From Candidatus Peribacteria bacterium (GTDB taxonomy: Bacteria; Patescibacteriota; Gracilibacteria; Peribacterales; Peribacteraceae): a DNA stretch of 64,000 nt. This document shows positions 36,231 through 45,792 of this stretch, one piece after another. Location: NCBI GenBank assembly GCA_041691135.1, contig JBEPVF010000001.1:64001-128000 (forward strand), read 5' to 3'. The translations under genes were made by a program, and so were the position numbers. Position 1 is the stretch's first letter, and the number at the start of each line of letters is the position of its first letter. The notes under the pieces are model-generated. The model searched no databases. It saw nothing but the letters and a program-made list of their open reading frames with translations, and was not told where the DNA came from.

Positions 36231-36556
36231 GTGTCTAAACGAGGCAGAATTTCAGCAGTCGATTTTTTGTTTAACAGAAGCCATAAAATTGGCACTCTAG
36301 TGGGGTCTTTTTTGGAAGTACTGATCGGCCAGTACGCACTGCCATATTAGAGTAATAAATATTATTTTAGTCAAATATCCCTATGCCGAATGAATTACTC
36401 AGGCTAAGAGCGAACGGCAGGTCAGTATGTAAACAATACTTTCTTTTCCTACCGTCAAAAATTCCTCCCCCGCAGTACGGGAAGGTTACCGATTTATATA
36501 CCGCGTCCCACGTATCGTTCTTTTGGAGAGCGGTGTCCGTTGTTCACTCCCATCTC

Positions 36557-36670
36557 TCAGCGCATAGCCGGGAGGCTCACCACCTGTATCACGATGAAGG
36601 TGATGATCGCTGCATGCACAAGCACGAGCGGGAGTGAAGCGCGGGTTAGGGATTGCTTCACTGCTTTCAT
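36557..36670 (-). CDS. 37-aa single-TM peptide in its own transcription unit
   Basis: MKAVKQSLTRASLPLVLVHAAIITFIVIQVVSLPAMR; AGGGGG SD; promoter TAGACA-N16-TACAAT at 36697-36724; terminator near 36457-36487. Confidence 0.55.
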   Translation of the reverse strand: MKAVKQSLTRASLPLVLVHAAIITFIVIQVVSLPAMR

Positions 36671-36810
36671 AGTACCCCCTTTGAGAGGGGACGGGCATTG
36701 TAAGGGTTTACTATTTGTTGTCTAGCATTAAGTAAGTAGATTCATTTATGCCTTAAAATTGATAATCTTTGGCCCTTTGGTAGATCGGTGTTCATTGCAG
36801 GAGTTCATTA

Positions 36811-37242
36811 CTATTGTATGCTGCTATGATCTAATGGTTTATTAGAGTTTTTTTCATTAATCTCGTCAATAGCTGCCTGTCCGGCTTCAATCCCAAAACG
36901 GACATAGCCCAAATGCAGATGCTCAAGGATCTCGGGAGCGTCCAGCGGTTGCCGCACGGCGGTTTTTGCCAGCAGTTGGCAAGTAAGAGTGTAATCGTGC
37001 CTGCCAGACTGCCAAAAAGCTTCAGATGGTGTGTCGACGGCAGATAACAGTTTATTGAAGGCTTCGGCGGTAAGGAACGACAGAAAACGTATTCTCTCGA
37101 ATGTTACAGCTTGATCGCTCTCCAGAAGCTCCTGCATTGTCCGTTTTCTTTCCTGGTAAATAGTCTCGAGTTCCTCAAGGGAACAATATTTGTCACGACT
37201 TGCCAGGAATGTGCCGCGCGATTCGGGGGAAGGACTAGACAT
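36811..37242 (-). CDS. Hypothetical protein downstream of the Ile/Thr leader
   Basis: 143-aa ORF starting about 15 nt after the attenuator U-tract. Confidence 0.65.
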   Translation of the reverse strand: MSSPSPESRGTFLASRDKYCSLEELETIYQERKRTMQELLESDQAVTFERIRFLSFLTAEAFNKLLSAVDTPSEAFWQSGRHDYTLTCQLLAKTAVRQPLDAPEILEHLHLGYVRFGIEAGQAAIDEINEKNSNKPLDHSSIQ

Positions 37243-37256
37243 AGGTGGACAGAGAG

Positions 37257-37401
37257 AAAAATCCCGCCATGCGCGGGAAGAGGAAGGAAAGTTCGGATCA
37301 GCTTCACCCTCTCACGCGTAGCGCGAGATAATAATAGTGATGCTGATGGTCGACAACCGCGTCATCGCCGGTGAATCTAGTGTGCTCGGTGGAAAAGTCA
37401 A
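37257..37401 (-). promoter_or_regulatory. Ile/Thr leader-peptide attenuator (leader ORF 37312-37365)
   Basis: TTGACT-N16-TAGATT promoter; leader MTRLSTISITIIISRYA; terminator TCCCGC-gcatg-GCGGGA-TTTTT; overlapping antiterminator CGCGTGAGAGG/CCTCTTCCCGCG. Confidence 0.75.
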
Positions 37402-37468
37402 CAATGTGGATGGTGACCGCTCGATTATCTCTTACGACAGGGGAATACTCACACGATGACGGCAGCCA

Positions 37469-38554
37469 TCAGTACTTCTTGCGCGTCAAAAAAGGTTTCT
37501 CGATGCAGAAATAGGTCGCAGCTGAAAGGCCTAACGTCAATGTGAGTGCGATCAAAAATTTAGAGGACACACCAAATGATAATCGTGTCACTTGTTGGAT
37601 GATGATGAAATGCCAGATGTAGAAGCTGTAACTTATCGTCCCTACTCCCAACAGAACGCGATTGCTGACTGCCGTCTTCACCCAGGAAAAAGTATGAGCG
37701 AGTGAGAAGAGAAACGAAGCGGTGGATAGGCCGACAAGCGAGTGAAGGAACACTTGTGAATAATAATGATCCCTGAATGTCTGTTGCAGTGTTGCGAACA
37801 GATGGATGCTGATGCCGAGCCCGCCCAAACTGATCAATAGCAGAAGCAATGCCGCTAACTTGGCAGTGGCTGACTGCATTGATTGCTTATGCGCGATAAA
37901 AATCGTCGCCCACGATGCCAATATGCCAAAAGCAAAATGATCCAATAGCCCGATAAAATTCTCGGTGTAGATGATCCGTTGTTCCTGATTCCACGCGGGA
38001 TAGAAGTCGGCAATGTACACGCGGAACCAGTAGGTGATGCTGACCATCAGCAGGCATCCCAGAAGAATCAACAGAGTGTTTCTCCTGGTAAAGAGGAAGA
38101 AGATCGGCAGGAAAGCATAGAAGATCATCTCGACTGATAAGCTCCACAGCACCGGATTGATGCCGTAATACGTGCTGGCACTCATACTCTGCAAAAAAAG
38201 CAAATGACTGGCGATGTTCATCAAGCCGGATCGTGTGAGCATCATCTGAGGCACGACGAAAATAAGAAATATGAAAAGAGAGAAATAATAAATAGGTGCG
38301 ATGCGCAAAAACCGCCGCTGCAGGTACTTCATGTTCGCGCCGTGAAAATAGATGGAACGGTAAATGAGGAAGCCGCTGAGCACGAAGAACATATCCAGTC
38401 CGATGTGACCGGCTTGAAACACGGGTGCAAGATTCATTCCCAAGAAATGGACATGCGATAGTTGATTAATGCCGTAGAAATGAAAGATGAACACCAGAAG
38501 AGCGGCCACGCCCCTGATGGAATCGAACCCAATCAATTTTTGTTGCTGTAGCAT
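37469..38554 (-). CDS. Acyltransferase family 3 (OafA-like)
   Basis: DSIRGVAALLV, DMFFVLSGFLI, RRFLRI, WSLSVEMIFY, ISYSFYIWH, IEKP. Confidence 0.93.
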   Translation of the reverse strand: MLQQQKLIGFDSIRGVAALLVFIFHFYGINQLSHVHFLGMNLAPVFQAGHIGLDMFFVLSGFLIYRSIYFHGANMKYLQRRFLRIAPIYYFSLFIFLIFVVPQMMLTRSGLMNIASHLLFLQSMSASTYYGINPVLWSLSVEMIFYAFLPIFFLFTRRNTLLILLGCLLMVSITYWFRVYIADFYPAWNQEQRIIYTENFIGLLDHFAFGILASWATIFIAHKQSMQSATAKLAALLLLLISLGGLGISIHLFATLQQTFRDHYYSQVFLHSLVGLSTASFLFSLAHTFSWVKTAVSNRVLLGVGTISYSFYIWHFIIIQQVTRLSFGVSSKFLIALTLTLGLSAATYFCIEKPFLTRKKY

Positions 38555-38650: not shown

Positions 38651-38727
38651 TGGTCGGGACGACAGGACTTGAACCTGCGACCTCGTGCTCCCGAAGCACG
38701 CGCTCTAGCCAACTGAGCTACGTCCCG
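38651..38727 (-). tRNA. tRNA-Pro(CGG)
   Basis: CGGGACG/CGTCCCG acceptor stem, CGTGC-TTCGGGA-GCACG anticodon arm, encoded CCA. Confidence 0.96.
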
Positions 38728-45494: not shown

Positions 45495-45591
45495 AAATTT
45501 GCTCCTTGGATAGTTCCAGGGTAATTGGGGTGGAATGCTGACTCGTTTGAATCAGCATCTTTCCCCGCATCGGTGATGACAAAGAACTACG

Positions 45592-45748
45592 AAAAATCTC
45601 CCGCGGGGAAGGGAGGCGATTCGCAGTTCAGAGTCGTTGCGAGTTTACAGCCCCCCTTCCGCCGTAAGGCAGAGTGCGAGGAGGCCGAGAGTGTTGATAC
45701 GAGAATGCATGTCTGGGCAAATTCTATTTATGATTTATAGGATGTCAA
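45592..45748 (-). promoter_or_regulatory. Leu leader-peptide attenuator (leader ORF 45645-45710)
   Basis: TTGACA-N16-TAGAAT promoter; leader MHSRINTLGLLALCLTAEGGL; terminator CTCCC...GGGAG-aTTTTT; antiterminator GCGGAAGGGGGGC/GCCTCCCTTCCCCGC. Confidence 0.72.
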
Positions 45749-45792
45749 ATTGCCCAAAGCTGCATGTAGATATTTTAGCTTCCAGAAGCCAT

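Follow-up and report, generated by a model that had tools for sequence, protein, structure and literature searches.

Layout of the leader element

The window considered here is the whole 64,000-nt stretch of DNA that was analysed; it comes from a Candidatus Peribacteria genome (G000) of 1.74 Mb that is 92% complete. On its minus strand, a promoter and a short Ile-rich open reading frame are followed by a set of alternative helices, an intrinsic terminator and the gene of a 143-aa orphan protein. The features of this locus are as follows.

37396..37401, minus strand: -35 box of the leader promoter (TTGACT), kept in two congeners (G001 and G004)
37374..37379, minus strand: -10 box of the leader promoter (TAGATT)
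37312..37365, minus strand: 17-codon Ile-rich leader ORF, MTRLSTISITIIISRYA, with frame, length and Ile block kept in the family
37327..37335, minus strand: tandem Ile11-13, the predicted main control codons, from the modelled ribosome position
37297..37347, minus strand: outer 1:2 helix, arms 37347-37337 and 37307-37297, in both the MFE and centroid folds, -12.0 kcal/mol
37310..37328, minus strand: inner hairpin sequestering segment 2 (anti-antiterminator), -10.7 kcal/mol
37272..37318, minus strand: antiterminator 2:3, 37318-37308 with 37283-37272, seen on masking the 5′ part up to Ile11
37257..37278, minus strand: intrinsic terminator 3:4 (37278-37262) plus T5 to 37257, -11.8 kcal/mol, with covariation
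36811..37242, minus strand: 143-aa orphan target gene, about 15 nt past the terminator, with a disordered S/T/P/E-rich N-terminus
36557..36670, minus strand: 37-aa hydrophobic small-protein gene (3′ slot marker), promoter 36724-36697, terminator 36485-36464
37469..38554, minus strand: Acyl_transf_3 membrane acyltransferase gene, between tRNA-Pro and the leader
38651..38727, minus strand: tRNA-Pro(CGG), the 5′ slot marker

An earlier note on this DNA had named the promoter boxes, the ORF, the 1:2, 2:3 and 3:4 helices, the T5 tract and the 143-aa ORF, and each was found on the minus strand at its position. The attenuator layout that it proposed is borne out by the combination of a short Ile-rich ORF, alternative helices and a terminator.

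Taken by itself the promoter is weak (9/12 matches; 6 sites found versus 2.7 expected), but it is nonetheless conserved in two congeners, and a TTGAC-like box lies 32-41 nt 5′ of the start in 43 of 53 family leaders. The leader ATG at 37365 is positioned 8 nt past the -10 box and 36 nt from the first base of the -35 box, and an SD-like word occurs 5′ of just one of the 55 Ile-rich family leaders described below. The rarity of SD-like words, together with this spacing of the promoter boxes, suggests that leader translation is likely leaderless; the leader mRNA is predicted to be leaderless or nearly so, in agreement with the near-leaderless start that had been proposed.

The leader ORF contains 5 Ile and 3 Thr codons, and the probability of at least 5 Ile in 16 codons is 0.0017 at the genome's Ile frequency of 5.8%. 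Its fold is more stable than expected by chance (z = -3.15; 0/200 shuffles as stable). Folding models contain a mutually exclusive antiterminator and terminator that share segment 3, with moderate covariation, and the intrinsic terminator with its U tract precedes the target gene. Two details of the earlier structural model had to be amended. The three helices are present, but the inner hairpin at 37328-37310, which holds segment 2, had been overlooked; and the 1:2 helix, said to cover the Ile codons, does so for Ile7-Thr10 and not for tandem Ile11-13. This outer 1:2 helix varies among relatives. The leader did not match any Rfam model at gathering thresholds, nor did any model, including T-box, riboswitch and Thr_leader models, reach E ≤ 10 over 36300-37500.

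The leader belongs to a conserved family

The leader is present in two of four congeners (G001 and G004), both of which retain the promoter boxes, the frame and the Ile codons; in G001, which carries a homolog of the 143-aa protein downstream, the leader DNA is 80% identical, far above the cargo gene. The earlier note had staked its reading on the conservation of the Ile codons and the reading frame in relatives, and both have been retained, including the Ile codons upstream of the G001 homolog. A pattern of 28 letters matched 12 of 200 family genomes and none with a reversed control, and a sequence-only profile was built from 11 of these 12 pattern-matched genomes. At E ≤ 0.01 this profile matched 70 of 151 genomes of the family; beyond the family, where the cut-off was E ≤ 1e-4, it matched a single genome in 135, with a Tyr-rich leader. 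The best 70 of 100 listed matches were taken; 7 were dropped by eye as having no clear leader or terminator and 2 more were left out (one in the wrong frame), leaving 61 leaders, of which 55 have at least three Ile codons.

Across these 55 leaders Ile makes up 29% of residues, a richness that is partly built into the profile and drawn from related genomes that are not independent. The Ile codons are ATT (141), ATC (129) and ATA (2); because both ATT and ATC are used in the Ile block, the amino acid is what is kept. Ile occupies positions -8 and -7 from the stop in 44 and 41 of the 55 leaders, respectively.

Covariation was assessed with an alignment not fitted to any structure. The three core pairs of the antiterminator are 94.8% paired in 59 sequences, and antiterminator covariation beats 500/500 shuffles, although one slid control (+2) equals it (0.066 versus 0.060). 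Two-sided changes in the terminator number 16 against 7.2 expected, and a genome's own 2:3 duplex beats cross-genome duplexes in 41 of 61 cases; when 59 leaders were scanned for mutual information without guidance, the helices did not stand out. Our literature search, limited for subscription journals, found no link of Patescibacteria or Peribacteria to leader-peptide attenuation. The Peribacteraceae Ile leader represents a very probable attenuator family absent from Rfam.

Several variants of the leader were observed. Other control codons appear on this RNA scaffold in leaders rich in Val/Leu (L085, L125, L136 and L141), Met (L134 and L145) or Tyr (L161). The 275-aa gene that follows the Tyr-rich L161, in another family, presumably encodes a protein resembling an aromatic amino-acid hydroxylase, as judged from a motif. 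Tandem Ile leaders (L099/L109) precede ilvA in G076, and in G075 (L061) a longer upstream frame ends in a fusion with the leader's 3′ half. A metagenome pattern scan returned two loci, both with cargo other than the 143-aa gene. Metagenome contigs L146 and L147 (around positions 1100-1230) share one sequence from the Ile codons up to and including the start of the cargo but differ in the promoter and the 5′ part of the leader, which suggests recombination inside the leader.

Modelled ribosome positions switch the terminator

We modelled the ribosome as a mask extending to 10 nt past the A-site codon and computed equilibrium folds; the results depend on this footprint. In such a walk along the 55 leaders, run without a shuffled control, placing the A site between -12 and -6 relative to the stop gave a median terminator probability of 0.01-0.05; at positions -4 to 0 the median was 0.95-0.97. 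The Ile block coincides with the modelled switching window at -12 to -6, and 49 of the 55 Ile leaders go to read-through with the modelled ribosome on Ile codons. For the leader in the window, the terminator probability was 0.09 at Ile11, 0.0 at Ile12 and 0.98 at the stop; at equilibrium it was approximately 0.55 at Ile7 and Ile9 and 0.87 at Ile13. In a co-transcriptional snapshot, before the 3′ arm of the terminator emerges, the 2:3 helix forms with the ribosome at Ile11-13. In folds with leader codons masked, a check put forward in the earlier note, masking to Ile11 allows 2:3 to form, and the terminator probability drops. In the untranslated state the terminator probability was 0.98 or 0.48, depending on the assumed 5′ end.

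These models suggest a mechanism in which the ribosome would load on the leaderless AUG. When Ile is plentiful, it would reach the stop codon and cover segment 2, so that the terminator forms; when Ile is short, a ribosome stalled at Ile11-13 would open the inner hairpin, allowing 2:3 to form and the gene to be transcribed. Sequence and modelling make a ribosome-mediated attenuator very likely, one that senses Ile and permits read-through when charged tRNA-Ile is scarce. A leader that merely looks like an attenuator, setting a fixed level of read-through with no sensing of Ile, is very improbable. Such a leader would be consistent with the short terminator (6 bp, T5), and in the accessible text of a study of the Streptomyces coelicolor ilvB leader, changes to the candidate codons had no effect (PMC1262725). 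However, this reading is at odds with the use of both ATT and ATC, with the match between the Ile block and the modelled switching window, and with the existence of forms of this scaffold that are rich in Val, Met or Tyr.

Cargo genes and the sensed amino acid

The first gene after the 55 Ile leaders is ilvA-like in 9 cases, cimA-like in 12 and leuA-like in 3, and is an orphan of 60-260 aa in 29; the other 2 are short ORFs. Most of the enzyme assignments score just below NCBIfam cut-offs and several of the proteins are cut at locus ends. Thus 24 of 55 Ile leaders precede ilvA-, cimA- or leuA-like genes, and the window's leader precedes an orphan. Because the profile is biased to Ile, we also ran the test from the protein side: of 19 long ilvA-like loci, 11 had an Ile leader no more than 260 nt away, versus 0 of 9 loci of other PLP enzymes. 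In two genomes (G020 and G191), an orphan sits between the leader and ilvA.

IlvA and CimA are two alternative first steps to 2-ketobutyrate, and since both lead to this intermediate the leader points to Ile alone. It is very likely that the leader senses Ile, not Ile and Thr. The Thr half of the dual sensing proposed in the earlier note did not hold up in the family, in which 13 of 55 Ile leaders lack Thr and 38 of 55 have at most one; both congeners have replaced Thr6 and Thr10, retaining only Thr2. A thrL-like sensor of both amino acids would explain the three Thr codons of the window's leader, where Thr10 adjoins the Ile block, and it fits the few Thr-rich relatives (7 Thr in G018) and the fact that Thr is the substrate of IlvA. 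We nevertheless consider it distinctly unlikely: apart from these Thr counts, antitermination is only partial when the modelled ribosome stalls at codons 6-9, and the cargo is the Ile-specific first step rather than thr genes.

Genes similar to livG-type ABC ATPases lie behind the leader's first gene in three loci, L132 (G135), L133 (G012) and L116 (G199). These neighbours may link some of the cargo to branched-chain amino-acid uptake.

Most of the isoleucine pathway was not found

In this genome we found no IlvA match beyond a 28% identical PLP enzyme, no CimA/LeuA, no IlvD, no TPP-enzyme and no aconitase/LeuC match; a partial KARI_N match scored 33 bits. The genome does contain IleRS, an IlvE-like aminotransferase and a livG-like ATPase. 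As the pathway enzymes were not found, Ile auxotrophy is likely; this supports the probable auxotrophy named in the earlier note, given that IlvA, CimA/LeuA and IlvD were all without a match in a genome that is 92% complete. Peribacteria are described, in the accessible text of PMC4736985, as making few amino acids and are inferred to live on externally derived ones.

Family genomes are 66-100% complete, so that absences mean 'not found'; of 200 such genomes, 3 gave a match to IlvD and 6 to aconitase/LeuC. Among the 25 genomes with a leader plus an enzyme, IlvD occurs in none, an aconitase/LeuC-like protein in one and a strong TPP-enzyme match in one.

The IlvA proteins that follow the leader have an intact catalytic core. 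Their regulatory domain, however, scores at most 27.7 bits in 9 proteins versus 66-108 in 3 free-living controls, being undetected in 4 of the 9 and cut off in 2, and an F-E-Y motif is lost in 7/7 full-length proteins. According to the part of PMC12224302 available, Tyr369 of E. coli IlvA lines the Ile pocket; we infer that the Tyr of the F-E-Y motif corresponds to this residue. As judged from sequence comparison, the feedback domain of these IlvA proteins is eroded.

A separate observation concerns the IleRS frame of this genome (C2:98955-102707; L149 and L150), which is 1461 aa long with about 400 aa between its two matched parts.

A chromosomal slot with interchangeable cargo

The leader and its cargo occupy a recurrent chromosomal slot. 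The leader lies at most 1.5 kb from tRNA-Pro(CGG) in 17 of the 30 best leader matches, and a small hydrophobic gene is found no more than 3 kb past the cargo in 16 of the 21 genomes that have both markers. This linkage is common to ilvA, cimA, leuA-like and orphan cargo; given the shared markers, the 143-aa orphan takes the place that the first enzyme of Ile synthesis has in relatives. The contents of the slot vary even among congeners: the acyltransferase gene is absent from it in G001 and G004, where tRNA-Pro is on the opposite strand, and G004 carries an unrelated 197-aa gene.

The hydrophobic gene that marks the 3′ side (37 aa here, 35-39 aa in the family) occurs in 68 of 200 family genomes and has a long conserved 3′ untranslated part. 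It had no match in Pfam or PHROGs and could encode a small membrane protein or be a type I toxin-like gene. We considered whether the 37-aa ORF might be a second leader and rejected this, as it has its own promoter and its peptide sequence is kept across the family; it lies outside the switch.

The 143-aa orphan protein

A six-frame search identified one homolog of the 143-aa protein, 36% identical, in G001 (1 of 199 other family genomes). Codon-position identities between the two genes are 0.44/0.59/0.32; the homolog and this protein-type pattern argue that the 143-aa ORF is a real protein. The 108-aa start given in the database was rejected, as homology with G001 reaches residue 1. The protein had no match in Pfam, NCBIfam or PHROGs, which supports the earlier description of the target as an orphan without a known family. 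Other homolog searches returned only its own record and found none among longer proteins, which is weak evidence; the ESM Atlas had no usable match for it and gave only sub-0.9 hypothetical clusters for the G001 homolog. It is not a fragment of IlvA or CimA by phmmer (no match at E ≤ 0.05).

The model used in the structure-based search that the earlier note recommended is a five-helix bundle predicted with confidence (pLDDT 85), its N-terminus being disordered, and the search brought up no specific match to its fold. Foldseek found nothing at E ≤ 0.001 among the PDB and viral models, and a VIA search returned generic helical bundles only, the best being a designed protein (Z 9.6, rmsd 3.4, 99 aligned), a Z below the level expected for helical bundles. 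A GlyQ helical domain (Z 7.5) was not trusted as a match. A second orphan family, of the G020 type, gave a model of pLDDT 82 and a best Z of 5.4.

The roughly 30 orphans split into many unrelated mini-families. Profile comparisons join small groups only, and the 143-aa protein joins none, so that a single orphan superfamily was rejected. The orphans do share a compositional feature: residues 2-16 of 28 orphans are 45.5% S/T/P/E versus 27.8% and 28.0% in controls (p ~5e-8), which were 210 large and 242 small soluble ORFs from this genome only, some of them spurious. The N-termini of the slot enzymes show a weak bias (33.9% S/T/P/E, p = 0.03) with no clear extension. The 143-aa protein has no hydrophobic segment or signal peptide.

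What the switched-on gene may do

From the modelling, the Ile leader and terminator likely switch on an uncharacterised gene of an ultra-small bacterium at Ile shortage, and the orphan so induced possibly draws more Ile from a host cell. The whole explanation, in which an Ile attenuator controls an orphan that would raise Ile supply, most likely via the host cell, we regard as probable. The narrower proposal that the target raises Ile supply specifically from a host is tentative, although it is the role we favour. We are led to it because these genomes hold only the feedback-controlled first step of Ile synthesis, or an orphan replacing it. The slot enzymes could push the host's Ile pathway via an exported keto-acid, and the orphans via an exported protein. 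Indirect signs of such a role are the N-terminal bias of the orphans, the shared slot and a VirB4-like ATPase that is present here. Against it speak the weaker bias of the enzymes, the generic fold of the orphan and VirB6, which is reported absent in Gracilibacteria in the accessible text of 10.1101/2025.01.22.634366. We take Peribacteraceae to belong to Gracilibacteria.

An alternative that keeps the same attenuator is that the 143-aa protein acts in its own cell, as an uptake accessory for branched-chain amino acids or peptides or as a brake on translation under Ile shortage. This is a possible but lesser candidate. A livG-like ABC ATPase follows the orphan in G135 and G012 and follows ilvA in G199, and this genome has an ATPase 68-70% identical elsewhere together with an IlvE-like aminotransferase; moreover, a protein with neither hydrophobic segment nor signal peptide would suit an intracellular role, as would the use of externally derived amino acids inferred for Peribacteria in the available part of PMC4736985. 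However, many unrelated orphan mini-families would be odd for the partner of a conserved machine of the cell's own, and lone ilvA and cimA genes with eroded feedback domains in the same slot are left unexplained.

It is also conceivable, though improbable, that the slot beside tRNA-Pro is a hot spot of gene turnover in which the orphan is a passenger unrelated to Ile, the leader being kept for a trans-acting RNA or peptide. Trans-acting attenuator products are known, with rnTrpL and peTrpL of Sinorhizobium described in the consulted portions of PMC6614838 and PMC7298713. Cargo does differ among congeners at the same locus (G000 and G001 versus G004), and the two metagenome contigs noted above combine a common cargo and 3′ leader with different promoters and 5′ leaders. 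Against a passenger, the orphan pair has a protein-type substitution pattern and has preserved its distance from the terminator, unrelated orphans have the N-terminal bias in common, and orphan-linked leaders keep the switch rather than the terminated RNA alone.

The host-directed role can be extended to a more general scheme, which is speculative and rather doubtful. Peribacteraceae attenuators might serve to manage the host rather than to make amino acids, in that Ile shortage would turn on an exchangeable cassette forcing the host to overproduce or release Ile. With equal reserve, such a cassette might be either a feedback-eroded IlvA or CimA that reaches the host itself or through its product, or else an effector that is small and evolves fast, such as the 143-aa protein. 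If this were true, the leader codons would label the host pathway targeted by each orphan effector, and if the lone feedback-eroded enzymes and slot orphans do act on the host, they would make up a demand-driven system of nutrient extraction. In Patescibacteria, the acquisition of building blocks from hosts and its regulation are described as almost unknown in the accessible text of PMC11665869. In an Ile auxotroph, a sensor for Ile that has been conserved points to the unknown genes relevant to Ile supply, and about 30 orphans thereby gain a functional label that can be tested.

Comparison with known systems

In E. coli, thrL and ilvL (the latter preceding ilvGMEDA) are leader-peptide attenuators, with Thr_leader as an Rfam family. 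The Peribacteraceae leader resembles them in its short ORF, where cognate codons cluster, in its alternative 1:2, 2:3 and 3:4 helices and intrinsic terminator and, in relatives, in its linkage to Ile-pathway genes. Unlike them, it would be Ile-only and not multivalent, is predicted to be leaderless, is SD-free and without an Rfam match, and would control one first-step enzyme or an orphan with the rest of the pathway absent. The general mechanism of leader-peptide attenuation has been described (PMC1183508, accessible text). The mechanism itself is textbook knowledge; what makes the case interesting is that an auxotroph has kept it in front of lone enzymes and orphans that replace one another.

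Compared by description, from the available parts of PMC1262725, PMC10272879 and PMC11857589, the actinobacterial ilvB/ilvBNC attenuators are similar in placing a short branched-chain-rich uORF and a terminator before an ilv gene, but those uORFs precede acetolactate synthase in complete operons, whereas the Peribacteraceae targets are ilvA, cimA and orphans in auxotrophs. The mycobacterial poly-Cys sORFs of the 'Cys ribulon', as presented in the portion of 10.1101/834739 consulted, are likewise leaderless short ORFs that sense one amino acid; their control acts on translation through RBS occlusion, whereas the Peribacteraceae terminator points to control of transcription. The many leaders per genome in that system form a ribosome-directed regulon, and the further leaders of this genome suggest likewise. 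Phage SAM lyases compensate for an ilvA deletion in E. coli by relieving repression of the host met regulon, according to the accessible text of PMC7877911. They offer a functional analogy only, that of a small foreign protein raising host Ile synthesis indirectly; the 143-aa protein has no sequence or fold link to them.

Other leaders in the window and genome

A second attenuator-like leader lies in the window at approximately 45590-45750 on the minus strand, with a TTGACA promoter, a Leu-rich ORF of 21 aa (45710-45645) and a terminator; no clear gene lies directly behind this ORF. Elsewhere in the genome, further leader-plus-terminator elements occur at C2:83705, C8:40587/41595/42252, C1:192347 and C16:13959, all on the plus strand. 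These leaders are rich in Leu, Phe, Val/Cys, Met or Tyr; several precede orphans of 81-141 aa, and the three on C8 are in tandem.
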